A stretch of DNA of 64,000 nucleotides from the NCBI GenBank assembly GCA_944389495.1, contig CALXMN010000003.1, positions 10,862-74,861 of the forward strand. Reading direction: 5' to 3'. Below are positions 4,478-61,237 of the stretch, piece after piece. The notes under the pieces are model-generated. The model worked only from the letters and a program-made list of their open reading frames with translations, was not told where the DNA came from and made no database searches. The first letter of the stretch is position 1. Each line of letters begins with the position of its first letter. The position numbers and the translations under genes were made by a program. Source of the DNA: an uncultured Alphaproteobacteria bacterium. GTDB lineage: Bacteria > Pseudomonadota > Alphaproteobacteria > Rs-D84.

Positions 4478-4759
4478 TTACTGCATTGCACACGCGTTGG
4501 TAAATTCATATGTCCCGGCGTTGTCTGTATACGGTGTGTTTGCCGGTGCGTACATAATGCACACCCCACTGGGGGCGGATACCAGGCAACTGGTTGCCGT
4601 TCCCAGTGACACATACCCGGTGGGACACGATCCATCAAAGATAGTCAGGCTGTAATTGTATTTGGCAATAAAGCCCGTAGGACACGATGTAGACGGCGCG
4701 GCGGCAAATGCGCCCACCGGCATACATATCATAATTAAAATAAATACCAATTTCATCAC
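4478..4759 (-). CDS. Family B small secreted Cys-rich protein (copy 1)
   Basis: Signal peptide, then AAPSTSCPTGF...GSCPTGYVS...CIMYAPANTPYTDNAGTYEFTNAC. It lies 9 bp downstream of family A copy 1. Confidence 0.6.
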   Translation of the reverse strand: MMKLVFILIMICMPVGAFAAAPSTSCPTGFIAKYNYSLTIFDGSCPTGYVSLGTATSCLVSAPSGVCIMYAPANTPYTDNAGTYEFTNACAMQ

Positions 4760-4768
4760 GGATGCCTT

Positions 4769-5194
4769 TTACATTAAACTTGAAAACGCTGCTGTCCGAA
4801 AAGATTCTGAGCTGGCGAATGAATACGCGCAATCATATGCACAGTCACTTGAACAGGTGCTGGCCGATCCGTATGAACCATTGTATAACCAGTAATATGA
4901 TACGGCTGGCCCAATCACTCTGCACCAACAATATTTATTGTTATTTAATGTGCCGCTAAGTTCCAACATATGTGCGGTTTCGCCGATGGTGCCGCCATTT
5001 TGGGATGAACATACGGCAATACCGGAAACATTGCGGCCACGGCACGAGTTTGCCCAATTATAACCACCGAGGCTTCCGTCATCTATCAGACAGGGTGTTT
5101 GTGGAATTTAAATGCATTGGGTAACGCCCTCGTTGGATGGTATTATATGCAGAATACATATTGCGGCGGTCGCGATTAGTATCTTGGATTTCAT
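4769..5194 (-). pseudogene. Family A secreted Cys-rich protein (copy 1), interrupted by one in-frame TAA at 5107-5109
   Basis: The reverse complement translates MKSKILIATAAICILHIIPSNEGVTQCI*IPQT...NNNKYCWCRVIGPAVSYYW...FRTAAFSSL. The stop replaces the Lys of the conserved VTKCVKL. RBS aggag precedes the ATG. Confidence 0.5.
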
Positions 5195-5300
5195 TTTTCT
5201 TATCTCCTGAGTTTCCTTATAAAAAACCACCAAATACATTGGTGGCCAGGAGATTCGAAACAATTACCAGAATTGTGTCACTTATTTGATATTCGTGACC
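5195..5300 (-). promoter_or_regulatory. Structured 5' leader of A copy 1: two hairpins, the second terminator-like (ccaccaatgtatttggtgg + T-tract) just before the RBS
   Basis: Same architecture as the leaders of A copies 3, 4 and 5. Confidence 0.4.
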
Positions 5301-5392
5301 CTCCTGACCAAAAAATCAGGAGTTTATTTATCGTCGTAATAAAAAACAACGCACACGCGCCGTTCAAATATCGACGCTGGTATTCGGGTTTC

Positions 5393-14410: not shown

Positions 14411-14519
14411 ATGCCGAATTTAAACGTCCGTTTTATCGGGCGTTTTTATTTTATAAAAAAATCCGATTTTCCGCACTTTTTGCTTTTATGTATATGCCGA
14501 AAAAAAACGGACGTTTGGA
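14411..14519. repeat. GCCGAA palindromic element (degenerate copy)
   Basis: ATGCCGAATTTAAACGTCCG...internal hairpin...ATGCCGAAAAAAAACGGACGTTTGGATTCGGC. Same architecture as the elements at 27885 and 49555. It lies directly upstream of A copy 2. Confidence 0.5.
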
Positions 14520-14545
14520 TTCGGCCAAAAATCAGGGGAAAAATA

Positions 14546-14953
14546 ATGGGTGTTTTAAAGACTTTGTTTTTGCTTGTAATCGCAATTACATTCTGCCAAC
14601 CGGCGTCTGCCGTTACCAAATGCGTAAAATTAAATTCATCAACAACGTGTTCCGATTATTCGGGCGCATTCGGTCAATCAAATTGGTCCGCGACATGCGG
14701 TGGCATATCAATACAGGGTGTTACATTTTGTGGTTCGCAAAACGGCGGTTCAGTTGGTGCAACAACCGACGCCGTTACGACCAGTTCAACCAATAAATAT
14801 TGTTGGTGTAAAATGGTATCACCTGCGGTGTCGCGCTGGGTTTTCGCCGGCGCGGATGATCATTGCGCGTACCGTTGCGCGGACGCCTGTGCGGGCTTCG
14901 CTCCGGCCACTGAGACTTTCCGGTCTGCGTTGTTCTCGGGTCTCGGCGATTGA
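14546..14953 (+). CDS. Family A secreted Cys-rich protein (copy 2)
   Basis: RBS aggggaaaaataATG. MGVLKTLFLLVIAITFCQPASAVTKCVKLNSS...NKYCWCKMVSPAVSRWVF...FRSALFSGLGD. Confidence 0.6.
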   Translation: MGVLKTLFLLVIAITFCQPASAVTKCVKLNSSTTCSDYSGAFGQSNWSATCGGISIQGVTFCGSQNGGSVGATTDAVTTSSTNKYCWCKMVSPAVSRWVFAGADDHCAYRCADACAGFAPATETFRSALFSGLGD

Positions 14954-15136
14954 TATATACGTAAATGCGTATGCGAATGCATACGCCGGTAACAGGTGGG
15001 GGTATGGGGGCGGATTCTCCGCCCCCGTGGAAAACAGATATGATAAAGGGGATTTATATAAAATAACGTAAGTTTTTTACATCAGGTTCCCAGCCACAAC
15101 TGGGAACAGGTTGCATCGCCGTATGCAGTCGTCGCA

Positions 15137-15270
15137 CGTCTTTCTCTGCGGTGTCGCGCTGGGTTTTCAACAACGCGAACACGTCGGCCGGTTCTTGCGC
15201 GAACAACGTTCAGAACAATGCGTCTTTCCGGTCCGCGTTGTTCTCGGGTCTCGGCTCCTTTGACAGGAAT
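15137..15270 (+). pseudogene. Promoter-less 3' fragment of a family A gene (candidate silent cassette)
   Basis: Two conserved boxes, ctgcggtgtcgcgctgggttttc and tttccggtc(c/t)gcgttgttctcgggtctcggc, are shared with the 3' end of A copy 2 at 14815-14950. They bracket a divergent ~80-bp segment encoding VSRWVFNNANTSAGSCANNVQNNASFRSALFSGLG. It has no start codon and no signal peptide. Confidence 0.5.
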
Positions 15271-15498
15271 ATACAGTTTGGCCAACCTGCGGGACGGGTG
15301 CAACAGCACCTTTCAGATGATATTCATCTGTTTTGCCTGTTATCCAAGGCGGGGTGGTGCGACCTTTTTGGACGCGTAAAACGCGGCCTTAAAAATACAA
15401 TGCGCAGGGGACGTCTGGGTTAGTAGTCGTATATGATATGAATATTATGTCTGTTGTGACAGAACGCCCGGGGCGTCCAATGGAATATCGGGGGGAAT

Positions 15499-15825
15499 AT
15501 GACATTGGATGAAATAAATAACCTGAATGGCAATATGTGCCCGAGATTTTCAACGTTTGCTAGGGATAAATTGCCAATGCCCGGCAAGAAAAAACGCCTT
15601 GACGAGATATTAAACCGCGAAATCATCGTGACTGATTTCAGAATTACTAAATCTAAAAAACGTGATGGAACAGATTGTCTGCGATTGCAATTTATTATTG
15701 ATGGTAATGTCTGTGTTGCTTTTACTGGCAGTGCTGTTTTATCAGACCAAATTCAATCGGCCAAAGATAACATACCTTTTCGTGGAACAATTGTAAAAAT
15801 AGACCGATATTACTCTTTCTCTTAA
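15499..15825 (+). CDS. Hypothetical protein (108 aa), inserted between A and B of cassette copy 2
   Basis: ORF only. No recognisable motif. Confidence 0.3.
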   Translation: MTLDEINNLNGNMCPRFSTFARDKLPMPGKKKRLDEILNREIIVTDFRITKSKKRDGTDCLRLQFIIDGNVCVAFTGSAVLSDQIQSAKDNIPFRGTIVKIDRYYSFS

Positions 15826-15847
15826 CACAACAACAGGGGGTTAAATT

Positions 15848-16126
15848 ATGAAATATTTTTATGTTTATCTGCTTTTATTAATACCATCAACTGTATATGC
15901 CGCCGAACCATCAACATCGTGCCCATCGGGTTATGTCGCAATAGAAGAAGAATATATGGATATTGCGGATGGTTCGTGCCCATCTGGATATACATCCGCC
16001 GGTACGGCGGACAGTTGTCTGATTTCGTCACCCGCCGGTTCATGCATAATGTACGCACCGGCAAATACAGAATACAGTGATGATGTCGGTGCGTATAAAT
16101 TTATCGTTGATTGCCCGATGGAATAA
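15848..16126 (+). CDS. Family B small secreted Cys-rich protein (copy 2)
   Basis: RBS caggggg. MKYFYVYLLLLIPSTVYAAEPSTSCPSGYVAIEEEYMDIADGSCPSGYTSAGTADSCLISSPAGSCIMYAPANTEYSDDVGAYKFIVDCPME. Confidence 0.6.
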   Translation: MKYFYVYLLLLIPSTVYAAEPSTSCPSGYVAIEEEYMDIADGSCPSGYTSAGTADSCLISSPAGSCIMYAPANTEYSDDVGAYKFIVDCPME

Positions 16127-20759: not shown

Positions 20760-20893
20760 TGCCTTAGCGTCGGAAAATAAGAAAACGTGCGGCGCGTGTA
20801 AATGCGCCGGTTTTAATATTCCGACGATAAATAAACTCCTGACCAACAATGTATTTGGTGGTTTTCTTATTCAGAAAAAACAGGAGTTTGAAA
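20760..20893 (+). promoter_or_regulatory. Structured 5' leader of A copy 3 with a hairpin before RBS caggag
   Basis: Contains ctcctgaccaacaatgtatttggtggttttc, related to the copy 1 leader. Confidence 0.35.
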
Positions 20894-21325
20894 ATGAAAT
20901 TAAAAATTTTGATTGCGGGCGTTGCGGTATTCTGTGTTATCGTTGCGCCGGCTGCGGCGGTTGTAAAGTGTGTAAAATTGACACAAAGTTCAACCTGTAC
21001 ATCAACAACTGCTAACAATTCTGGTCCAGAATGGACCGCAACCTGTGGTGGAACACCAATCAAAGGCATCGGTATTTGCAGCGATAAAAAAGGAAGTTCT
21101 GTCGGCTCAAAATCATCCAGTCTGACCATAGATTACTATACAGACTAAAATAAGTATTGTTGGTGTAAAATTATCAGTCCCGCCGTATCATCACAATGGA
21201 CATACGATGATTATAATTACACTTCGGGGGCTGATTGTGCGCGTGATTGTGCCTATGGCTGTGCCGCAGACATAGAAATAAATGCTGCGCTTCGTTCTTC
21301 GTTATTATATGGTTTTTCTGATTAA
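20894..21325 (+). pseudogene. Family A secreted Cys-rich protein (copy 3), interrupted by one in-frame TAA at 21146-21148
   Basis: MKLKILIAGVAVFCVIVAPAAAVVKCVKLTQSS...TIDYYTD*NKYCWCKIISPAVSSQW...AALRSSLLYGFSD. One frame throughout, with conserved motifs on both sides of the stop. Confidence 0.5.
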
Positions 21326-21341
21326 AAACGGGTAATTAAAA

Positions 21342-21617
21342 ATGAAAAAAATAATATTATTTTTGGCAATTGTGCCGTGTGCATCATTTGCGGCCGCGCC
21401 GTCAACATCGTGTCCATCGGGCACAATGGCCATAAACAAACAATATATGATAATTGGTAATACATCGTGTCCGTCGGGGTATTCATATGTTGGGGCGGCA
21501 TATACGTGCCTTTTGACATATCGCGGCAGTTCGTGTCTGATGTATGCGCCGGTAAACACGGAATACACAGATGCCGCCGGCACATACGAATATACCGCCG
21601 CCTGTCCATTGGAATAA
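21342..21617 (+). CDS. Family B small secreted Cys-rich protein (copy 3)
   Basis: MKKIILFLAIVPCASFAAAPSTSCPSGTMAINKQYMIIGNTSCPSGYSYVGAAYTCL...CLMYAPVNTEYTDAAGTYEYTAACPLE. Confidence 0.6.
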   Translation: MKKIILFLAIVPCASFAAAPSTSCPSGTMAINKQYMIIGNTSCPSGYSYVGAAYTCLLTYRGSSCLMYAPVNTEYTDAAGTYEYTAACPLE

Positions 21618-25796: not shown

Positions 25797-25839
25797 TGGT
25801 CGCCATTCCCCGTAACAACAAGTTTACCCCCAATCCTTG

Positions 25840-26235
25840 TCATTGCAAGGAAGGGCGCCCGGCAATCTTCTCTTGTCATTGCGAGCCACGTCAGTGGCGT
25901 GGCAATCCAGTAAATAAAAAAGCACTGCGGGCATCGCCCGCAGACATAATAAACCTGAATTGCTTCGTTTCACTCGCAATGACAATGTACTTATGCAGCC
26001 GTTGTTTCCTATAGTTGTACGACTTTTGTCTCCCCATTTGTCATTGCAAGGGAGGAGCACCCGGCAATCTTCTTTTGTCATTGCGAGCCACGTCAGTGGC
26101 GTGGCAATCCATAATACGGTATTTGCCACCGCAAATAAGTTTATAATAACTGGATCGCCACGGTCGTTACACTCCCTCGCGATGACAAGGGTTGGGGACA
26201 CGGGCGCCACCAGTGCGTCACGTTACGGGATGACG
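25840..26235. repeat. Array of MITE-like palindromic elements with terminal inverted repeats TTGTCATTGCGAG / CTCGCAATGACAA
   Basis: Several units, each with an internal hairpin (GCCACGTCAGTGGCGTGGC, CTGCGGGCATCGCCCGCAG). The array is reiterated at 36992-37300 and 52375-52470. Confidence 0.6.
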
Positions 26236-26238
26236 GAA

Positions 26239-26526
26239 TTATTCCAGTGGACAGGCCTGGTCAAATTCATATGTGCCGTATGTGTCTGTGTATTCTGTAT
26301 ATGCCGGTGCATACATAATGCACGCCCCAGACGGTGACGCCACCAAACAACTGTCCGCAGTGCCGACGGATGTGTATCCGGATGGGCACGAACCATCCGA
26401 TATTATTAAATATTCTTCTTCTATTGTTGCATAGTCCGACGGGCACGATGTTGACGGTGCGGCGGCAAATGATGCACACGGCACAATCGCCATAATTAAA
26501 ACCGATATTCGTTTCATATTCGCCAC
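26239..26526 (-). CDS. Family B small secreted Cys-rich protein (copy 4)
   Basis: MANMKRISVLIMAIVPCASFAAAPSTSCPSDYATIEEEYLIISDGSCPSGYTSVGTADSCLVASPSGACIMYAPAYTEYTDTYGTYEFDQACPLE. Confidence 0.6.
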   Translation of the reverse strand: MANMKRISVLIMAIVPCASFAAAPSTSCPSDYATIEEEYLIISDGSCPSGYTSVGTADSCLVASPSGACIMYAPAYTEYTDTYGTYEFDQACPLE

Positions 26527-26532
26527 CCCAAT

Positions 26533-26961
26533 TTAGTCAGACAGATTACTGAACATCGCGGACCGGAAAGACGCATTGTCCGCTGCGCGGTACGCACAGC
26601 TGTACGCGCAACGATAGCCACAATACGACGTCCCGAGGACGTTGTTGTACACCCAAGACGACACGGCCGGAGATACCATTTTGCACCAGCAATATTTGTC
26701 ATCAGTACCGCCACTAATTTCCAAAGCCGTCGCTGTCTGGCCAATTGAACTGCCACTTGTGCTGGAACATTGACTTATGCCCCTTATTGCGATACTTGTT
26801 CCACTGGTGGTACAATTTGATGTCCAGTCAACAACATTATACCCAGGCTCAACAAACGAACACGTTGTTGATGATGACAGTTTTACGCATTTTGTGACGG
26901 CCGCGGCCGGTGGGATTGTGGCCGCACAAATCAGACCCGCGATTAATATTTTTGATTTCAT
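26533..26961 (-). CDS. Family A secreted Cys-rich protein (copy 4)
   Basis: RBS aaggag. MKSKILIAGLICAATIPPAAAVTKCVKLSSSTTC...DDKYCWCKMVSPAVSSWVY...ASFRSAMFSNLSD. Confidence 0.6.
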   Translation of the reverse strand: MKSKILIAGLICAATIPPAAAVTKCVKLSSSTTCSFVEPGYNVVDWTSNCTTSGTSIAIRGISQCSSTSGSSIGQTATALEISGGTDDKYCWCKMVSPAVSSWVYNNVLGTSYCGYRCAYSCAYRAADNASFRSAMFSNLSD

Positions 26962-27078
26962 TGTGAACACTCCTTGTGTTTGGGTAAAACAAAAACCACC
27001 AAATTTAAGGTGGTTGGAGGTTCATAGCTATATCAGGTATAGTGTGCTTATTCTATATATTCGCAGCCCTCCAACCCG
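26962..27078 (-). promoter_or_regulatory. Conserved structured leader of A copy 4: long-range helix GGTTGGAGG/CCTCCAACC, then terminator-like hairpin CCACCTTAAATTTGGTGG + T-tract, then RBS
   Basis: About 100 nt, nearly identical to 38050-38165 upstream of A copy 5. Confidence 0.45.
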
Positions 27079-27884: not shown

Positions 27885-27993
27885 ATGCCGAAAACAAACC
27901 ACCGGTTTATGGTGGCTTTTTTTGTGTTTTAAAAATCCCTGTTTTCTGGGGCTTTTTGTTTTTTTATTGTGCCGAATACAAACGGTGGTTTTG
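27885..27993. repeat. GCCGAA palindromic element
   Basis: ATGCCGAAAACAAACCACCGGTTTATGGTGG...internal hairpin (aaaatccctgttttctggggcttttt)...GCCGAATACAAACGGTGGTTTT. About 110 bp, with inverted termini. Copies at 49555 and 14411. Confidence 0.55.
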
Positions 27994-35860: not shown

Positions 35861-36784
35861 ATGAAAAAAATAATATCTTTGGCTGTATTGGCGGCTATGT
35901 TTGCGGGGTGCACGGATCTTAGTACTACCACAGATACCAGTGGCGTAAACGGCTATGCGGCCGACGGTTTCGGTGAAGAAACATTAATCACAACGGATGA
36001 ATCGTTAAATAATACATATTTGTTGGCGCCGGCCCCCAAATATTATGTGGGCAGTGCGTACAAGGTCGAAGATGTACAATACATCCCGGTTGAAGATTTA
36101 ACATATAATCAAACCGGTATTGCGGGCATTATCCCGGCGGAATTAAACGGAACAAAAACCAGTAATGGCGAAGTATTTGATATGAACCAAATGGTCGCCA
36201 CCAGCAAGACGTTACCATTACCAACAATTGCGCGTGTAACAAATCTGGACAATGGTCAATCGGTTGTTGTTCGTGTAAATAATCGCGGTCCATTTGTAAA
36301 TACCCGCATTATGGATTTGTCACCGGCCGCGGCCCAGAAAATTGGTATGAATGGTCAAACCAAGGTCCAGGTCCAGGTTATGGCCAACGAATCTGTTGCG
36401 GTTAAAAATGCAACGATTGGTGCGACGGCTCCGGCGCAACAGCCGGCTGTTCAGCCCGCACCGACCCAAACCGTTGAAACAACAACTGTTGTAACGACAA
36501 CCACGGCACCGGATGCCGCCGCCCCGGTGGCCCAGACGGCGGGTGGTGATTACAGTGTCCAGATTGCCGCATTTTATGCCCAGGACAGCGCGGATTCATT
36601 GGCGGCCCGTATGGCAAAATATGGTAATGCCGTTGTTGTGCAAGAGGGGGATATGTACAAAGTACGCATAGTTAATCTGGATGCGGCCCAGGCGCGTGGT
36701 GTAATTGATGCGCTTCGTAACAACGAAGGTATGGCACCCGGTCTGTTGCGAAACGGCCGTTGGGTTAACGCCGACAGCATTTAA
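35861..36784 (+). CDS. rlpA: Septal ring lytic transglycosylase RlpA (DPBB domain + C-terminal SPOR domain)
   Basis: GEVFDMNQMVATSKTLPLPTIARVTNLDNGQSVVVRVNNRGPF and SPOR (YSVQIAAFYAQDSADSLAARMAKYG...). RBS aaggag. Confidence 0.8.
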   Translation: MKKIISLAVLAAMFAGCTDLSTTTDTSGVNGYAADGFGEETLITTDESLNNTYLLAPAPKYYVGSAYKVEDVQYIPVEDLTYNQTGIAGIIPAELNGTKTSNGEVFDMNQMVATSKTLPLPTIARVTNLDNGQSVVVRVNNRGPFVNTRIMDLSPAAAQKIGMNGQTKVQVQVMANESVAVKNATIGATAPAQQPAVQPAPTQTVETTTVVTTTTAPDAAAPVAQTAGGDYSVQIAAFYAQDSADSLAARMAKYGNAVVVQEGDMYKVRIVNLDAAQARGVIDALRNNEGMAPGLLRNGRWVNADSI

Positions 36785-36810
36785 AAACGGGGCTTTGCCC
36801 CGTTTTTGTT
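36784..36810 (+). terminator. Intrinsic terminator after rlpA
   Basis: aaaaacggggctttgccccgtttttg. Confidence 0.55.
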
Positions 36811-36991
36811 AGGGGGCAGAGTATAGAGTACAAATGTTGGCCGCGTCCGAGTGGGTGCGTTTTTTTATTTACTGGATCGTCACATAGTTACTCGTGTTTT
36901 TTTTGTATGCGTGTGTCGCTCGGACGCGTTGCGTCCTGTGCGTATCCTCGGTATTTGTTCAAACTGCGCTATCGCTTGTTTTCACATACTC

Positions 36992-37300
36992 GGATTCATT
37001 GCGAGCCACGTTAGTGGCGCGGCAATCCTGTAAATAAAAAAGTACCGCGGGCATCGCCCGCAGACATAATAAAACTGGATTGCTTCGTTTTACTCGCAAT
37101 GACAATGTACTTATGCAGCCGTTGTTTCCTATAGTTGTACAACTTTTGCCTTTCCTCTTGTTATTGCGAGCCACACAGTGGCGTGGCAATCCATAATACG
37201 GTATTTGCCGCCGCAAATAAGTTTATAATAACTGGATCGCCACGGTCGTTACACTCCCTCGCGATGACAAGGGTGGGGGACACTGGCACCACCAGTGCGT
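36992..37300. repeat. MITE-like TTGTCATTGCGAG-type palindromic element array, part of the segmental duplication
   Basis: Homologous to 25869-26235, with point differences. Some differences are compensatory within hairpins. Confidence 0.6.
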
Positions 37301-37320
37301 CACGTTACGGGATGACGGAA

Positions 37321-37608
37321 TTATTCCAGCGGACAGGCCTGGTCAAATTCATATGTGCCGTATGTGTCTGTGTATTCTGTATATGCCGGTGCATACATAA
37401 TGTACGAACCCGCGGGTGACGAAATCAGACAACTGGTTGCAGTGCCGGCGGATGTGTAACCCGATGGGCACGAACCATCCGCAATATCCATATGTTCTTC
37501 CACCACCGTGACATATCCCGATGGACACGAAGTGGACGGCGCGGCGGCAAATGATGCACACGGCACAATCGCCATAATTAAAACCGATATTCGTTTCATA
37601 TTCGCCAC
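37321..37608 (-). CDS. Family B small secreted Cys-rich protein (copy 5)
   Basis: MANMKRISVLIMAIVPCASFAAAPSTSCPSGYVTVVEEHMDIADGSCPSGYTSAGTATSCLISSPAGSYIMYAPAYTEYTDTYGTYEFDQACPLE. Confidence 0.6.
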   Translation of the reverse strand: MANMKRISVLIMAIVPCASFAAAPSTSCPSGYVTVVEEHMDIADGSCPSGYTSAGTATSCLISSPAGSYIMYAPAYTEYTDTYGTYEFDQACPLE

Positions 37609-37614
37609 TCCAAT

Positions 37615-38040
37615 TTAGTCAGACAGATTACTGAACAACGCGGACCGTGTTGTTTCATTGGCACGGATAATGCTAGCACAATAATTACTACAAGAAGAGC
37701 AAGTCATAGCAGCGGAAACAGGGCCATTTATTACACCAAAGTATACCCATTGCGATACTGCGGGACTAATCATTCTGCACCAACAATACTCATTTGAATC
37801 AATTGAAGAAGCCATAGATAATGAAGTTGCCGTTGCGCCAAGGTCTTCGCCTTTTTGGTTGCTACAAAATGAAACGCCGCTGACAGACACGCCATTACAA
37901 GTCATAGACCAATCTGACCCTTTGCCGGAAACGTTTGAACACGTTGTTGATGACGTTAATTTTACGCATTTGGTAACGGCAAACGCCGGTGGGATTGTGG
38001 CCGCGCACAGCAGGCCGGCAATTAATAAATATTTTTTCAT
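37615..38040 (-). CDS. Family A secreted Cys-rich protein (copy 5)
   Basis: RBS aggagg. MKKYLLIAGLLCAATIPPAFAVTKCVKLTSSTTC...NEYCWCRMISPAVSQWVY...TTRSALFSNLSD. The ORF-track N-terminal extension is spurious. Confidence 0.6.
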   Translation of the reverse strand: MKKYLLIAGLLCAATIPPAFAVTKCVKLTSSTTCSNVSGKGSDWSMTCNGVSVSGVSFCSNQKGEDLGATATSLSMASSIDSNEYCWCRMISPAVSQWVYFGVINGPVSAAMTCSSCSNYCASIIRANETTRSALFSNLSD

Positions 38041-38049
38041 TCTAAACCT

Positions 38050-38165
38050 CCTTGTTTTCATTGCGAATGAAAAAACCACCAAATTTAAGGTGGTTGGAGG
38101 TTCATAGCTATATCAGGTATAGTGTGCTTATTCTATATATTCGCAACCCTCCAACCCGAAAGTGG
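38050..38165 (-). promoter_or_regulatory. Conserved structured leader of A copy 5
   Basis: Near-identical to 26962-27078. Confidence 0.45.
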
Positions 38166-49348: not shown

Positions 49349-49361
49349 ATTTTTATAAAAT

Positions 49362-49392
49362 AACAAAATCAACCGCCCATTTCTGGGCGGTT
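49362..49392 (+). terminator. Intrinsic terminator after csp
   Basis: aaaatcaaccgcccatttctgggcggtttttg. Confidence 0.55.
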
Positions 49393-49554
49393 TTTGTATG
49401 TCGGCCCAGTAAAGTAATTTGATAAAATAAAATATCCACACGGTGGTGTAATATATTTTGCCCGCGATAATAAAAATGCGTCATATTAATTCCCAAATGA
49501 ATAAATTTTAGTTGACTGTACAATGAATTTTTTGATAACATATGCATAAGTGAG

Positions 49555-49663
49555 ATGCCGAAAACAAACCACCGTTTGGATTCGGCGTTTTTATTTTTGC
49601 CAAAATCCCGAAATTTCGGGATTTTTTTATTTCTTGGTATGCCGAATCCAAACGGTGGTTTTT
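49555..49663. repeat. GCCGAA palindromic element
   Basis: ATGCCGAAAACAAACCACCGTTTGGATTCGGC...aaaatcccgaaatttcgggattttttt...ATGCCGAATCCAAACGGTGGTTTTT. Directly upstream of the Cys-rich gene at 49684. Confidence 0.55.
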
Positions 49664-49683
49664 ATGAAAGCAAAGGAAAGAAA

Positions 49684-50391
49684 ATGAAAATTTTATTAAA
49701 AAGACATACGACTGCAAATGAATACAAGTATTCGCGCGGGGTAAAATTTCCTTTTTTTCATTGGTTTTTGGTTCTTGCCATCAGTGTGTGTGACTGGATA
49801 ATCAAGACAAATGATGCGATGGCGGCAACCTGTACCAGCACCCAGGCGGCGTCTTGTTCGGCCCAATGCCCCAGTCCGCTGTTTGGTTCTTGTGTCGCCA
49901 GTTATAATACATTCAGTTGCAGTTGTTACATTTCAAACGAGGCGTATTCCGGCGTATGCTCAGAATTTTCGGTACATCGTAATGCGTGTTTATTAGCTGT
50001 GAACAGTGCAATTAATTGCGGCAACGGGCGCAAGATTCATTGTATATCATATAATTTGAACAGTTATAATTGTACAACGGCCGGCGTTAATTCGGCCCAG
50101 GCCATTTGTGGTCGTGTATTTCCAATAAATCTTAATGCGACCAGTACGCAATGTTCCTGTATTTATTCTACGGTGGCAAATGGTGTTTGTAACTGTTTTG
50201 CGTGCAAGACATATTATTATGGGGTTGGTTGTTATAATTCGTGCCCATCATATTATGTGTCTGGATACGGCACAATATACGGTACCAGTGGTAAGTGGGG
50301 CGGAAACATAGGCAGTTGCACGGTTTCGGTCCCCGAAGGATGTGATACAACGGGTTGTTACAATGCACACACTTGTCCGTATAAAATCTAA
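49684..50391 (+). CDS. Large Cys-rich secreted protein (about 235 aa). Hypothetical.
   Basis: N-terminal TM or signal segment. About 40 Cys in C..C / CxC patterns. Followed by two glycosyltransferase genes. Confidence 0.5.
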   Translation: MKILLKRHTTANEYKYSRGVKFPFFHWFLVLAISVCDWIIKTNDAMAATCTSTQAASCSAQCPSPLFGSCVASYNTFSCSCYISNEAYSGVCSEFSVHRNACLLAVNSAINCGNGRKIHCISYNLNSYNCTTAGVNSAQAICGRVFPINLNATSTQCSCIYSTVANGVCNCFACKTYYYGVGCYNSCPSYYVSGYGTIYGTSGKWGGNIGSCTVSVPEGCDTTGCYNAHTCPYKI

Positions 50392-50399
50392 GGGTAAAT

Positions 50400-51362
50400 A
50401 TGCCAGAAATATCGATTATTATACCAAATAAAAATAATGCCTGTTTTTTGGACGATTGTTTAAATTCAGTATTAACCCAAACATTCCGGGATTGGGAATG
50501 TATCATAATCGACGACGGCAGCACGGATGATTCTGTTAAAATAATCAAGCGCTTTTGCAAGAAAGATAAACGTTTCAGATTAATAGAGCAAAAGTCACGC
50601 GGTGTTTCTGTGGCGCGAAATGTTGGCCTGGATAATATCAGTGGCAAATGGTGTTGCTTTTTGGATTCGGACGATGTTTTATTACACGAAGCATTTGAAA
50701 CAATGCTGTACGGTGTATCCGTAATGAACTATGATATAATCGAGGCGGATTCGGTTTTTGTTCACAAAGATTTTGTTTCGCATAAATACAATCCGTCATT
50801 TAGCCCGGCAAATATCGAGATATTTAATTTCGATGACATATACGAAGGAATTTCTAAGTACAGTAATAATATTGCCTGGGTCTGGCGCAGATTGTACAGA
50901 ACCGATTTGGCCAAGATGGCCCGCTTTCCCGAAAATATTCAAATTAATGAAGATTTATTGTGGTTTATGGATATTTTGTCTTTCAGACCACGTATCGCCA
51001 AAGTCAAAGCAACTGTTCTTTGGCATCGTATATGGGATAATTCTTTGACGCGTGCGGCGGGCGCGCCCGGGCGTCTGGAAGAATTAACAACGGTGATTGA
51101 TCGTATCGCAAAAAATGATAAAATACCGAAACATTTTTGTGACTATGTCATTCATAATTTGTTGTTCTGTATGATTCAATATGATTGCCACGAAGTCCAG
51201 TTATCAAAAAAAATAATTTCACCCAAATTGCGGAAAAAACTGTGGACGTATCGTAAACGGTACCGCAGGTTTTCGCGTGCATTTCGTCGATTTATTTATG
51301 CATTTTTAATAAAACAATTTTTCTTATATATGGCATACGGGAAAGATAAAAATGAAAATTAA
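50400..51362 (+). CDS. Glycosyltransferase family 2
   Basis: ISIIIPNKNNACFLDDCLNSVLTQTF..ECIIIDDGSTDDS and DSDD motifs. Confidence 0.8.
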   Translation: MPEISIIIPNKNNACFLDDCLNSVLTQTFRDWECIIIDDGSTDDSVKIIKRFCKKDKRFRLIEQKSRGVSVARNVGLDNISGKWCCFLDSDDVLLHEAFETMLYGVSVMNYDIIEADSVFVHKDFVSHKYNPSFSPANIEIFNFDDIYEGISKYSNNIAWVWRRLYRTDLAKMARFPENIQINEDLLWFMDILSFRPRIAKVKATVLWHRIWDNSLTRAAGAPGRLEELTTVIDRIAKNDKIPKHFCDYVIHNLLFCMIQYDCHEVQLSKKIISPKLRKKLWTYRKRYRRFSRAFRRFIYAFLIKQFFLYMAYGKDKNEN

Positions 51363-52215
51363 TGTTGCATTTGCATTTGATGGTAAATTGTGGCTGCAGT
51401 CAGCGGTAAGTATTTATTCTTTGTCATTACACACGGGCGGCGACAGATACAATATATATTGTTTAATTGATACATCTGTTCATAATGCTATGTGCGATGT
51501 GATACGTAATGTTGTTAAACATAATCGTCGGATAAAGATACATTTCTTGCGGTTTGATGCCGATATATTAAAGAACAATTGCTATGACGATGGTACAGCC
51601 CGATTTCCACGTGTGGCAATGGCGCGATTGTTTTTACCGAATATGTTGCCGCATCAGAAAAAAATTCTGTGGCTGGATTCGGATATAATTGTGTGTGATA
51701 ACTTATCAGGTTTATATAAAACGAATTTAACGGGTAATTTTATTGCGGCAATTCGTGATACGGGAATGGATGAAGTAATTAAAATGTATCCCAAAGAATT
51801 TAAACACTATGATGAATATGGTTTGACTGAAATGGTTCAAAGGTGTGAATATGTAAACAGCGGTGTTTTGTTAATGAATTTGCGGGAAATGCGTGCATAC
51901 GGATGGACAGAACGTTGCCTTGAACGAATATCATCTGAAAAACGTAATATATGGTACTTTGACCAAGATGTTATAAATTCGGTCAGTCGCGGTCATATTA
52001 AATATGTTTCGCCGCGTTATAATCGTATGACGAAAATCAATTTACAAAACGCAGTCAGTGCATATCAGCGGGCCGGATTGCCGACCGAGTCAATAATAGA
52101 CGGCTTTTTTGATTGTGCGATTTTACATTATGCCGGCACACAAAAACCTTGGCGACACGAAGGGCCATATTGGGATGTTTGGACGGCCTATGGCCAATTA
52201 AGCGGATTGTTCTAA
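51352..52215 (+). CDS. Glycosyltransferase family 8 (LPS glycosyltransferase-like)
   Basis: ILWLDSDIIV (DxD) and the typical GT8 C-terminus. Confidence 0.7.
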   Translation: MKINVAFAFDGKLWLQSAVSIYSLSLHTGGDRYNIYCLIDTSVHNAMCDVIRNVVKHNRRIKIHFLRFDADILKNNCYDDGTARFPRVAMARLFLPNMLPHQKKILWLDSDIIVCDNLSGLYKTNLTGNFIAAIRDTGMDEVIKMYPKEFKHYDEYGLTEMVQRCEYVNSGVLLMNLREMRAYGWTERCLERISSEKRNIWYFDQDVINSVSRGHIKYVSPRYNRMTKINLQNAVSAYQRAGLPTESIIDGFFDCAILHYAGTQKPWRHEGPYWDVWTAYGQLSGLF

Positions 52216-52261
52216 GGCGTTTTAATTTAAAAATATATGGATATTGTGTTGTCTGATTCCA

Positions 52262-52360
52262 TTACCCGTGGGTTCGTGCATTATGTTTGCGCCGCCATAT
52301 ACAGAATACAGTGACAGCACCGGCACATATGAATTTACGGCCGCCTGTCCGCTGGAATAA
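52262..52360 (+). pseudogene. Promoter-less 3' fragment of a family B gene (...MFAPPYTEYSDSTGTYEFTAACPLE*)
   Basis: Homologous to B C-termini. No N-terminus or signal peptide. Confidence 0.5.
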
Positions 52361-52374
52361 CCATATCATACTGT

Positions 52375-52470
52375 GCCCCCATCTTTGTCATTGCGAGGGG
52401 GGGGCAGCCGGCATTTTCTCTTGTCATTGCGAGCCATCGCAGATGGCGTGGCAATCCAGTTGTCTGATTC
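52375..52470. repeat. MITE-like TTGTCATTGCGAG elements (two units) between the two B 3' fragments
   Basis: ttgtcattgcgagggg... and ttgtcattgcgagccatcgcagatggcgtggcaatcc, the second with hairpin GCCATC-GCA-GATGGC. Confidence 0.55.
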
Positions 52471-52489
52471 CATCATCCGCGGTATGCCC

Positions 52490-52558
52490 CGGCAAATACA
52501 GAATACACGGAAGTATCCAGCATATATGAATATACCGCCGCCTGCCCACTGGAATAGA
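52490..52558 (+). pseudogene. Second promoter-less family B 3' fragment (...PANTEYTEVSSIYEYTAACPLE*)
   Basis: Reading-frame match to the B C-terminal motif. Confidence 0.45.
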
Positions 52559-52587
52559 TAAACAATCTCTGTTCTCCGTTCTCTGAA

Positions 52588-52612
52588 CAAACGGGGCAAA
52601 AGCCCCGTTTTT
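52588..52612 (-). terminator. Intrinsic terminator downstream of the RNase J gene
   Basis: aaacggggcaaaagccccgttttta. Confidence 0.5.
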
Positions 52613-54413
52613 ATTTCTGCACAAAGTGTACGCTGTATTGCGGTTTTTTGTCCGCACCCAACGATGCGCGCACAACGCGATTTGATGCCGCCTGGACCGC
52701 GCGAATAAGGTTGGATTTATCCTTGCGCTCGCTCTTGGTCAGATTATCAATTGCACGTGTTATTTCGATTTGAATTTGACGTTTCATAAAACCTGTGTCG
52801 TCGGTTTCAAATATACCGGCGCTGGACACTTCGGGGGTTCCCTTTAAGAACCCGCGTTTATCCACCGGCAATGTCACAAAGATTGCGCCATTCGTTGCAA
52901 TTTTCTTGCGTGTTTTGTATACAGGGTCATCGGTACTGCGTTCTGTTTCACCTTCCATAACGACGAATCCCGTTTCGATGGTTTCGGAAATATATGGCGC
53001 CTCGCCATCGGCCAGTGCAATCATTTCACCATTATGTACAACCATCATATATTTTGCGCCGCCGCGTTCCATCGCCATTTTCCCATTCAGCATTTCGTTA
53101 ATATAGTCACCGTGCATAGGAACAGAAACCTGGGGGTGCACCATATCATAGAAACGTTCAAATTCCGGACGTCCTGCGTGACCACTGGCGTGCAAATGAT
53201 CGGTGTCATAAATTGTATGCGTTTTGATTCCCATCCGCGCCAGTTTGTTATACAGATACGAAACGTCCTGTTCGCGTCCCGGAATGATAATAGAACTGAA
53301 CAAAACCGTATCTGTTGGCTGCAGTTTCATTTCCTTTACGTGTCCGCGGCACAGACGCGTAAGCATAGCAAACTGTTCCCCCTGGGACCCGGTCAGGAAT
53401 ATTGCCTGTTTTTCTGCGGGTAAATCTTTGATTTCGCTGTGCAGATAAATATCGTCTTTATCAAGATAGCCGAATTCAATACCCATTTCACGAAATTCCG
53501 GCAATCCCACGAACGGCACAGGATTTGGATTGCTGCGTTCTTTGATTGCGGCAACGCGACCGGCGGCACGGGCGGCCTGGGCGAACATTTTCATACGTGC
53601 GATTGAACGCGAGTATCCGGTAACCAGCACGCGTCCCGGTGCATTTTTCATAATTTCGGCCAATGTATCGCGAACCTGGATTTCGGTTGTTTGCGGTTGC
53701 TGGCGTGATGCAGATGTGGAATCAGACATACACGCCAACAGTTTTGGATCAGAACCGATTTCACGCAGTCGTGCATAATCGGTCGGATCTTCAATCGGAT
53801 TATCATCATTAAATGTCCAGTCGCCCGTATGCAGAACTTTGCCCGCCGGTGTTTTTATGATTAACATTTGTGCCTCGGGCACGGAATGCGAAACGTGGAA
53901 CGTTTCGACCTCGAACGGATCAAGATGTAATGTCGCGCCGTGATGATCGATTTCTATGATGTCCTTTTTCGGATCAAAGTCCAATTCAATACCACGGAAT
54001 GTCTGGCGCAGAATTTCCGCCGGAAAACGTGTACAATAAATTGGCTTTCTGAATTTCGGCCATACGAATTTTAATGCGCCGATATGATCTTCGTGCCCGT
54101 GGGTTAAAACGAAACCAACAACGTCCTTTTTACGTTTTTCCAGCCACGTTGTATCACAGTATTGCACATCACCGGCACCAATTTCTTCTTCCAGAAATCC
54201 CATACCGCAATCGACGACCAGATATTTTCCTTTGTACTTGTAAACATACATATTTTGGCCGACGTGTTCCAATCCGCCCAACGCCATAAAGTACAATTTT
54301 TCATCATTTTTATCGTTTTCAAATTTATTCATACCAGAAATTTTTGCTGGTTTTTGTTGCGCCGGTCCCGCAATTGTTTCTGGTGCCGTTTGTTTTTCAC
54401 GTACTTTTACCAT
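52611..54413 (-). CDS. rnj: Ribonuclease J (MBL / beta-CASP RNase)
   Basis: 600 aa. HGHEDHIG motif and beta-CASP region. Confidence 0.85.
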   Translation of the reverse strand: MVKVREKQTAPETIAGPAQQKPAKISGMNKFENDKNDEKLYFMALGGLEHVGQNMYVYKYKGKYLVVDCGMGFLEEEIGAGDVQYCDTTWLEKRKKDVVGFVLTHGHEDHIGALKFVWPKFRKPIYCTRFPAEILRQTFRGIELDFDPKKDIIEIDHHGATLHLDPFEVETFHVSHSVPEAQMLIIKTPAGKVLHTGDWTFNDDNPIEDPTDYARLREIGSDPKLLACMSDSTSASRQQPQTTEIQVRDTLAEIMKNAPGRVLVTGYSRSIARMKMFAQAARAAGRVAAIKERSNPNPVPFVGLPEFREMGIEFGYLDKDDIYLHSEIKDLPAEKQAIFLTGSQGEQFAMLTRLCRGHVKEMKLQPTDTVLFSSIIIPGREQDVSYLYNKLARMGIKTHTIYDTDHLHASGHAGRPEFERFYDMVHPQVSVPMHGDYINEMLNGKMAMERGGAKYMMVVHNGEMIALADGEAPYISETIETGFVVMEGETERSTDDPVYKTRKKIATNGAIFVTLPVDKRGFLKGTPEVSSAGIFETDDTGFMKRQIQIEITRAIDNLTKSERKDKSNLIRAVQAASNRVVRASLGADKKPQYSVHFVQK

Positions 54414-60159: not shown

Positions 60160-60475
60160 AATTATATTCCTGGCCTGGATTATAGCGCACACATTGCCCG
60201 TTTCAATAAAAGATTCCCGATAATAAAAACTTGTTAACGAAACACATTTGTGTTAACCTGTGCAACGACGTGGGGAATTCCCGCGTTGGGGCATCTAAAC
60301 CTCTATGCTGTGTGTCCGTGGGGACATAAAATACCCTCCAACTCTTTTGGTTGGGGGACGGTGAATATATTGAATAAACCGTGCTATCTCACAGTATATA
60401 GTTTAGAACCTCCAACCACCTGATTTTTATCTGGTGGTTTTTTCGTTAACAAAATCGAAAAAAGGGTTCTAAAAA

Positions 60476-61237
60476 ATGAAGAAATCACTAATGTTCATCG
60501 TGGTGTGTGGACTGACAGGGCGGGCACTTGCCGGGTCTTTAAGTTGCACATCTACATATAATTCTTTACCATCGGGCTATTCTGCCGGCGGATCTGGCAC
60601 GTCGCCCAGTCATTGTTTAAGTTCTTATACTGGTTACCAATGTAACAGCAGTACACGCCAATGCGACACGGTGCAAAATTGTACCTCGTGTACATCGGGA
60701 TATTACCCCAGCCAGATTACCGTCCCCAGCAGTGGTGTTTGTTCTACTGTTACGTTTTCTTCGTGTTGTACCCAGTGCTATGATTGCACCAGCGATACCG
60801 ATTACCAATATTACAGTCCCGGCTATCTGCGCAAAGCAAATCGTTGGTGTAATTGTGGTGTTTGTGAAACATCGTACGTCTATAAGTGCGCCGACGGATA
60901 CTATGGCAACCCCGGCGATCAGCCAACCGGATGCGAACCGTGCAAAGAATGCGAAAACTGTGAATCAGACACCGAATGGAAACCCCAACAAATAGAAGGA
61001 TGGGTTGTTAAAGTAACCAGAACTTGTGAATGTGATGGCAGCTGTGTGATAGATAAAATTAGCAATGCGTGTGCTGCAGGGTATTATATGTCGTCTGGTT
61101 GCACCCGATGTCCGGGCGACGGTGATTCGGCCGTGGCCAGCTGGAATATAACAGACTGTTTTATTCCGGGGGGACAAACTCTTTCAGATGAAACTGGATC
61201 TTACGAGTATATATCGGACTGCTATTACAGTTTTTAA
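60476..61237 (+). CDS. Large Cys-rich secreted protein (253 aa). Hypothetical.
   Basis: Signal peptide. Many CxxC / GYY repeats. The C-terminal ETGSYEYISDCYYSF is related to the family B TEY..GTYEF..C motif. Confidence 0.5.
   Translation: MKKSLMFIVVCGLTGRALAGSLSCTSTYNSLPSGYSAGGSGTSPSHCLSSYTGYQCNSSTRQCDTVQNCTSCTSGYYPSQITVPSSGVCSTVTFSSCCTQCYDCTSDTDYQYYSPGYLRKANRWCNCGVCETSYVYKCADGYYGNPGDQPTGCEPCKECENCESDTEWKPQQIEGWVVKVTRTCECDGSCVIDKISNACAAGYYMSSGCTRCPGDGDSAVASWNITDCFIPGGQTLSDETGSYEYISDCYYSF

Follow-up and report, generated by a model that had tools for sequence, protein, structure and literature searches.

Truncated B gene fragments beside a REP-like repeat array in an uncultured Candidatus Enterousia-like alphaproteobacterium

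The 64,000-nucleotide stretch of DNA analysed here, referred to as the window, belongs to an uncultured alphaproteobacterium and contains two tandem 3' fragments of genes from a family of small secreted proteins, which we call B. The fragments, F1 and F2, are located on the forward strand between a GT8 gene and the gene of RNase J (Table 1), and are homologous to the final third of the approximately 92-residue B proteins. As pseudogene scars of a multigene family that recombines, situated beside arrays of repeats that resemble repetitive extragenic palindromic (REP) elements, they are of a known kind. F1 and F2 are probably non-functional remnants of B genes that take part passively in ectopic gene conversion and are not maintained as a store of variants. 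Sequence comparisons indicate that F1 recently exchanged sequence with an intact copy of B elsewhere in the genome. The fragments are markers of a process in which cassettes of a B gene and a preceding gene, A, are gained, replaced, eroded, and partly homogenized on the time scale of strain divergence.

Structure and decay of the two fragments

Four full-length B proteins compared with the window using tblastn match positions 52250-52357 from residue ~56/60 of B to its end, with 56-69% identity and E values of 5e-13 to 3e-10. The same proteins give a second, weaker match at 52444/52483-52554 (E 4e-8 to 1e-4). The matched region is the conserved C-terminal block of B, C-L-x-S-P-x-G-S-C-I-M-Y-A-P...Y-E-[FY]-x-x-A-C-P-L-E, for which F1 and F2 reach 5e-13 and 4e-8, respectively. 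An earlier interpretation of this DNA from its letters (the sequence-only reading) had recognized the two tandem B 3' fragments, and its translations are correct. The extents of the fragments are slightly wider than it gave, and the TAG stop codon of F2 occupies 52555-52557, which places the end that it assigned, 52558, one base too far. It had correctly positioned the fragments between the GT8 gene and the RNase J terminator, far from any full cassette; the nearest complete A-B pair, at 37321-38082, is 14 kb away. The fragments were also described as promoter-less, and no promoter-like site was found on the forward strand between 52100 and 52700.

The start codon, signal peptide, PSTSCP motif, and preceding A gene that characterize a complete B gene are not found together with either fragment. 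F1 contains in-frame TTG and ATG codons, without a signal peptide. No B homology was detected upstream of 52231, and between there and F1 it is limited to a 17-nt out-of-frame relic; the locus contains no A gene. The relic is collinear with F1, from which it is separated by the loss of about 54 nt of the gene, and falls on the EEYMDI codons in local alignments to five full B genes. Its 12-mer ATATGGATATTG, at 52235-52246, occurs three times in 64 kb (in B15, in B37, and here), compared with an expectation of 0.03. F1 and F2 share their 5' boundary, both opening with GTTGTCTGATTCC. After base 24, F2 lacks 14 nt, which shifts its frame (spacing 211 vs 197 nt; 77-88% identity to F1), and its C-L-I-P-S-S and Y-A-P-A-N-T-E-Y codons are in different frames. 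The F2 residues TEVSSIY are absent from the 167 full-length family proteins retrieved.

The window was compared with 13 contigs from independent metagenome assemblies, which gives a set of 14 strain-level assemblies. F2 is present in 13 of the 13 further contigs, and F1 in all 12 that span the GT8-RNase J spacer; the remaining contig, L133, ends inside the repeat array between the fragments. A 396-nt spacer identical to that of the window recurs in two independent assemblies (L003 and L009). The locus is not an assembly artefact, because this spacer recurs in independent assemblies and the fragments recur in contigs of other strains.

F1 has a nucleotide diversity of 0.027 and F2 one of 0.019. 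The corresponding values at four-fold sites are 0.0146 for RNase J, 0.0087 for GT8, and 0.0072 for GT2, and the first and second codon positions of RNase J have a diversity of 0.0003. Eight of the 11 variable sites in F1 are nonsynonymous or nonsense. The F1 alleles include a serine codon changed to the stop TAG (L130), cysteine to tyrosine at either conserved cysteine (L004/L005/L132 and L008), and proline to serine. Alleles of F2 include TGC to TGA in L008, L130, and L133, and an additional 1-nt deletion in L132. Both fragments evolve at or above the synonymous rate, free of constraint on a coding sequence or a structured element. They do not have the stop-free, frameshift-free frames and sub-neutral diversity expected of partial copies that serve as donor cassettes.

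The same data make it highly improbable that the fragments are a functional non-coding or small-open-reading-frame element, such as the 3' untranslated region of GT8, a terminator structure, or a 25-38-residue F1 peptide. The placement of the fragments within the 3' region of GT8 and the in-frame TTG and ATG codons of F1 favour such an element, but diversity reaches or exceeds the synonymous rate, a stop interrupts F1 in one strain, and the peptide has no signal sequence. The only terminator-like structure found at the locus is the hairpin at 52589-52610, which belongs to RNase J.

Truncation by deletion and exchange with intact B genes

Contigs anchored on ribosomal protein S4 provide the B21, B26, and B37 loci of other strains, and one of them displays the formation of a B 3' fragment. 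At the B21 locus of L112 and L116 (~1330-1700), a deletion of ~800 nt has removed A21 completely, along with the first three quarters of the B21 gene, leaving the last 22 codons in place. The deletion junction lies in a 10-nt direct repeat, ATGCGCCGGT, copies of which are located upstream of A21 and inside B21. The A21-B21 cassette shows other decay as well: the window copy of A21 contains a TAA nonsense codon, in L110 the frame is shifted, and in L108 B21 lacks 57 nt through an in-frame deletion. At the B26 locus of some strains, the A protein best matches the paralog A14 with only 57-59% amino-acid identity, and B is 67-91% identical, in between nearly identical flanking genes. The B37 locus differs between strains in a similar manner (A 72-74%, B 87-92%, flanks nearly identical), and three strains retain a 28-codon 5' fragment of A37 beside the replaced cassette. 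These differences look like the replacement of cassettes at fixed loci between strains. Erosion and replacement of cassettes that leave fragments at the edges are an observed process in this species.

F1 and F2 resemble the pseudogene scars that microhomology deletion leaves of multigene families in reduced genomes in being truncated, frameshifted, promoter-less, and neutrally evolving, and the transition from intact to deleted is visible at B21. Unlike such scars, F1 has been kept nearly identical to an intact paralog for 130-450 nt by recombination reaching into the adjacent repeats.

The paralog in question is located at the recG-frr locus. Bases 1-24 of F1 resemble F2, B37, and B15, and from base 25 (GGTTCGTGCAT) onwards the fragment is of the recG-frr type. 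Over its last 89 nt, from base 25 through the stop codon, and a further 130-450 nt of array, F1 is collinear with the recG-locus B gene with 0-6 mismatches (~99% identity), whereas its 24-nt head differs from the recG-type gene at 9 of 24 positions (Fisher p 2e-9). The head and the upstream relic are not of the recG type, as the relic has EYMDI rather than KSMTI codons. F1 is a mosaic, because its head and relic resemble F2, B37, and B15 and not the recG-type gene. Both the F1 and recG loci are polymorphic for ATT/ATA, for a threonine/isoleucine codon, and for several variants of the repeat array.

Full-length B genes that are collinear with F1 from base 25 occur in contigs L118-L123, L011, and L012 (0-6 mismatches over 118-450 nt), and the F1-type C-terminus is present in the full-length gene products P0030, P0079, and P0168. 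P0168 is encoded between recG and two tRNA genes with frr. The samples that yielded its contigs also yielded contigs of this species, at similar coverage, and L118 and L110 both come from BRZ_IT. An exact scan of JGI metagenome contigs for an F1-type 23-mer gave no match. The recG-tRNA-frr locus (L118 5531-6700 and L119 1-1300) carries an intact A gene (151 residues) and B gene (94 residues) with an F1-type 3' end. This cassette is followed by a repeat array of ~400 nt that continues up to a terminator, with no F2-like fragment.

The mosaic structure bears on a rival explanation, according to which two tandem A-B cassettes once stood between GT8 and RNase J and decayed in place, by independent deletions and with no later exchange, into F1 and F2; the identity to the recG locus would stem from a recent duplication that brought the cassette of that locus here before it was truncated. 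In favour of this, related species (L018, L023, and L029) contain tandem A-B-A arrangements, deletion that leaves 3' ends is documented, and the F1 tail is collinear with that of its paralog. The head of F1, with its nine mismatches and EYMDI codons, does not fit this explanation, the polymorphisms common to both loci suggest more than one exchange, and F1 and F2 would share their 5' boundary by chance. We therefore regard in-situ decay without exchange as quite unlikely.

Mosaic 3' ends of B, which the sequence-only reading had proposed to look for in other isolates or read populations, are present at several loci besides the shared tail of F1 and the recG-type gene. The first 195 nt of the L011 B gene are 92% identical to the B gene of another lineage, to which its last 84 nt are only 68% identical; the same 84 nt are 98.8% identical to F1. 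B26 and B37 have 3' ends and repeat tails that are 88-100% identical, whereas their A proteins are only 47% identical. The allele of L110 at the B37 locus contains an 8-nt micro-tract identical to F2 and B21. The breakpoint recurrent in the B mosaics lies in the conserved G-S-C-I-M codons.

With the repeat tails beyond the B stop codons, different loci would share homology over hundreds of bases. Through these tails, ectopic recombination or gene conversion would homogenize and shuffle the 3' modules of B, with the breakpoint at the G-S-C-I-M codons. F1 would then be a relic of some age, its 3' part and tail overwritten by sequence of the recG-type gene, most simply with F1 as the recipient. 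The insertion of the array, and the duplication of the 24-nt head with which both F1 and F2 open, may go back to this event.

Three observations weigh against this interpretation of the fragments as passive scars. The displayed frame of F1 is still open in most strains, and its 3' module is in use in at least two full-length backgrounds, so that a donor role is possible. The polymorphisms shared between loci could in part result from mis-phasing of near-identical repeats longer than 300 nt when short-read metagenomes were assembled. The identical start base of F1 and F2 is explained only by the duplication or insertion event suggested above.

A donor role is the substance of a second rival explanation, in which the promoter-less B C-termini are silent cassettes that donate to expressed B genes by segmental gene conversion and so vary a surface or secreted antigen. 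Silent-cassette antigenic variation is known from the msp2/p44 functional pseudogenes of Anaplasma, pilE/pilS of Neisseria, vlsE of Borrelia, and MgPar of Mycoplasma genitalium. The B family shares with these systems a small-genome, host-associated bacterium, a secreted family whose ends are conserved and whose cores vary, incomplete copies that lack promoters, and mosaics with recurrent breakpoints. It differs from them in having many full copies with their own upstream regions and only two partial copies, which are not kept open by selection. There is also no single expression site, and the variation is documented between strains and not within a clone.

The presence of the F1-type 3' module on full-length genes of at least two backgrounds and at a further locus in this species, the recurrent mosaic breakpoint, the L110 micro-tract, and the open frame of F1 in most strains are consistent with donor cassettes. 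The fragments, however, evolve neutrally and have stops, lost cysteines, and frameshifts, and the variant residues of F2 occur in 0 of 167 family proteins. The F1-type module is present on full genes, which would fit transfer in either direction. The homology at the 5' end of F1 is just ~24 nt long and non-identical, the micro-tract is ambiguous as to its donor since B21 has the same tract, and fragments demonstrably arise by deletion at the B21 locus. A donor system would have few expression sites and a larger promoter-less pool. Here, two fragments face at least six full-length genes, five in the 64 kb and one at recG-frr, each with an A gene and its own upstream region, and the full paralogs suffice as donors. 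We consider a silent-cassette function unlikely. The cassette-storage or recombination model proposed in the sequence-only reading is upheld with regard to recombination, while decay, neutrality, the absence of F2 residues, and origin by deletion leave storage unsupported. That reading had named frameshifts or random decay with no sequence exchange as the outcome that would contradict it; F2 is frameshifted and the F1 relic is out of frame, which speaks against storage, and exchange was found.

Homogenization of paralog 3' ends by concerted evolution, as in tuf genes, rRNA operons, and PE/PPE genes, resembles the situation at F1 in the sharp boundary, the diverged head next to a ~99% identical tail, and the shared polymorphisms. 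The difference is that one partner here is a dead fragment and the homology tract is mostly non-coding repeat array.

Site-specific or templated diversification, by shufflon-like inversion, duplication of an att site at the B 3' end, or the template repeat of a diversity-generating retroelement, is very improbable. The likeness, alternative 3' ends beside repeats, is superficial. Both fragments are on the forward strand, no constant 5' part of the gene is nearby, and the upstream gene is the unrelated GT8. The window encodes no reverse transcriptase, transposase, or invertase among its housekeeping genes, and its XerD-type integrase, at 32.5 kb, is of the housekeeping type and 19 kb from the fragments. 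Retroelement activity is further contradicted by mismatches of all types that are not adenine-specific, with one fixed tail difference of G in F1 and A in the gene, and the fragments flank only the repeat array and not the glycosyltransferase island. The diversity-generating retroelement, the shufflon, and att-site duplication were all rejected on the lack of the enzymes they need, the orientation, and the mismatch pattern.

It is conceivable, if doubtful, that the repeat tails act as portable homology arms, by which 3' modules pass among many A-B loci, and the dead fragments as an auxiliary reservoir of modules for copying into expressed genes, in an undescribed variation system of Candidatus Enterousia, with its genome of ~1 Mb. 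Such a system would be a decentralized analogue of the functional pseudogenes of Anaplasma in a gut symbiont.

Table 1 Positions of the fragments, B genes, and neighbouring features in the window.
Feature	Position	Strand	Description
F1 upstream relic	52231-52247	+	Central E-Y-M-D-I codons of a B gene
F1	52248-52360	+	B 3' remnant, last 36 codons and TAA, mosaic
Minimal repeat array	52361-52458		24 nt of B-type downstream flank, half unit 52385-52420, and hairpin unit 52421-52459
F2	52459-52557	+	Older, more decayed B 3' remnant, TAG stop
Bidirectional terminator hairpin	52589-52610		Common to RNase J; right edge of the locus
RNase J gene	52611-54413	-	
GT8 gene	51352-52215		Pfam Glyco_transf_8, 1.8e-35
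3.2-kb island between CSD and RNase J	49349-52610	+	Cys-rich secreted protein (49684-50391), GT2, GT8, F1, repeats, F2
B37	37321-37608	-	Nearest full B, family reference; A37 37615-38082; repeat tail ~36950-37320
B26	26239-26526	-	Full B; A26 26533-26970; repeat tail 25828-26197
B21	21342-21617	+	Full B in a decaying cassette
Five A-B cassettes	4478-5230 (-), 14411-16126 (+), 20849-21617 (+), 26239-26970 (-), 37321-38082 (-)		Among housekeeping genes

Repeat arrays at B 3' ends

The region between F1 and F2 was described in the sequence-only reading as two palindromic TTGTCATTGCGAG elements. Two exact copies are present, at 52385-52397 and 52421-52433, but only the second belongs to a hairpin unit (-8.2 kcal/mol, z -2.5); the first is part of a half unit without a hairpin. 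A search for inverted repeats in 52200-52620 found none. The TTGTCATTGCGAG core has 12 matches with up to two mismatches in the window, compared with 2.5 expected. Eleven of them closely follow the stop codon of B26, B37, or F1, in clusters at 25.8-26.2 kb, 36.9-37.3 kb, and 52.38-52.46 kb. The remaining match (38055-38067, two mismatches) is inside the extended open reading frame of A37. Each of the four arrays found in the species immediately follows a B gene or B fragment.

In line with the suggestion that TTGTCATTGCGAG units might mark recombination breakpoints, the units coincide with breakpoints of rearrangement. The 5' start of F2 coincides exactly with the end of a repeat unit, and in L004 a unit core is fused to F2. 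The right-hand junction is at the end of a unit (…GGCAATCCA joined to GTTGTCTG), and its microhomology of only 1-3 nt suggests an illegitimate join. Nine lengths of the GT8-RNase J spacer were observed: 396, 563, 587, 613, 647, 666, 763, 933, and 1047 nt. The 396-nt form and the 763-nt form occur in three assemblies each. The spacers differ in length solely through the number and type of the repeat units that separate F1 from F2, and the array of other strains contains up to ~14 cores in a spacer of up to 1047 nt. The arrays behind B genes are hot spots of cassette turnover.

Palindromic repeat classes suitable for comparison are REP elements and their mosaic arrays (BIME), REPINs, the Correia elements of Neisseria, and the Rickettsia palindromic elements (RPEs). 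The units described here have the short length (36-39 nt), conserved core, and imperfect hairpin of REP/BIME arrays, REPINs, and such elements resembling miniature inverted-repeat transposable elements. Unit hairpins have predicted energies of -8.2 and -8.4 kcal/mol (z -2.5 and -2.7). Inverted doublets fold into long hairpins, as exemplified by 25873-25985 (-29.3 kcal/mol, z -6.1), and the units form intergenic clusters 3' of stop codons, vary in copy number between strains, and are found at rearrangement junctions. They differ from REP and REPIN elements in their tie to B 3' ends and in the absence from the window open reading frames of a REP-associated tyrosine transposase (RAYT) or IS200-type transposase; no match to an Rfam family was obtained at gathering thresholds. 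Literature searches with the repeat core returned unrelated primer matches only. Other Enterousia lineages (L093-L102) lack the TTGTCATTGCGAG core at their equivalent HU-LemA loci, which points to an expansion that is recent and confined to this species.

One contig region, L115 9001-10520 (equal to L125), joins window positions 36722-37270 to 52381-52666, so that the B37 array leads into the F1-F2 array, F2, and RNase J. Reading it as a 15-kb deletion was set aside, and it was treated as a possible assembly chimera, since the skipped segment has essential genes and a single contig of another strain (L111/L132) keeps the order of the window. The junction is either a chimera formed through the repeats or a real rearrangement.

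Two additional repeat families were noticed upstream of secreted-protein genes. A palindromic element of ~108 nt is located just upstream of such genes at 49555-49662, 27885-27992, 14411-14516, and ~710-750. It inflates the mechanically called open reading frames 49555-50391 and 14411-14953, the former of which gene callers start at 49684. A third hairpin element, CTCCTGACC...GGTCAGGAG, precedes A genes at 5189-5310, 20833-20899, and 38035-38152, as well as in L111 (~700-780) and L118 (5401-5480). At the A21 locus it is 70 nt longer in L111, and the element appears to be mobile or unstable too. Short open reading frames called across 52.2-52.6 kb and in the repeat arrays are not to be trusted in annotation.

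The A-B cassettes and the RNase J island

Four B genes of 91-92 codons end in ...YAPxxTEYxDxxGTYE[FY]xxAC[PA][LM][EQ] before the stop codon, and a fifth, B15, is located at 15848-16126. Each full B gene is predicted to encode a signal peptide and the PSTSCP motif, and is preceded by an A gene for a putatively secreted, cysteine-rich protein of 140-150 residues. A protein database contains 266 homologues of B, all of them unnamed. No Pfam or NCBIfam match was found for A, B, or the cysteine-rich protein of the island, and a B profile had no match among PDB sequences. The predicted structure of B, computed from an 84-sequence alignment, is poor (pLDDT 56.7, pTM 0.36). No known family accommodates A or B, and in a region that otherwise consists of housekeeping genes they show the most variation. 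Should A and B mediate the contact of the bacterium with a host or partner organism, their turnover would be the genomic signature of that interaction. The A-B cassette system is undescribed, and is more interesting than the fragments.

A 42-codon C-terminal fragment of A (15148-15252, 55% identical to A26) is present between A14 and B15, together with an unrelated 108-residue open reading frame at 15499-15825 that has no family match. Their position inside A14-B15 indicates that this cassette has also been rearranged. The open reading frame 60476-61237 (253 residues, no Pfam match) has an upstream region (60349-60514) and a signal-peptide start like those of A genes. Based on this resemblance, a shared 5' module may serve several secreted-protein genes.

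The window has a G+C content of 44%. Representatives of 80 species, named Candidatus Enterousia or uncultured Alphaproteobacteria/Rickettsiales, have RNase J proteins that are 82-94% identical to that of the window, and the source is a Candidatus Enterousia-like gut alphaproteobacterium. Candidatus Enterousia belongs to the order Rs-D84 and has genomes smaller than 1 Mb (PMC12306168). Papers on Enterousia do not mention these genes and repeats. In synteny around RNase J, none of the 80 species representatives has GT8 or B fragments adjoining the gene. In other Enterousia species, CSD and RNase J are directly convergent, ~50 nt apart, with one equivalent terminator hairpin between them. The 3.2-kb island that separates the two genes in the window has a separate terminator hairpin at each end.

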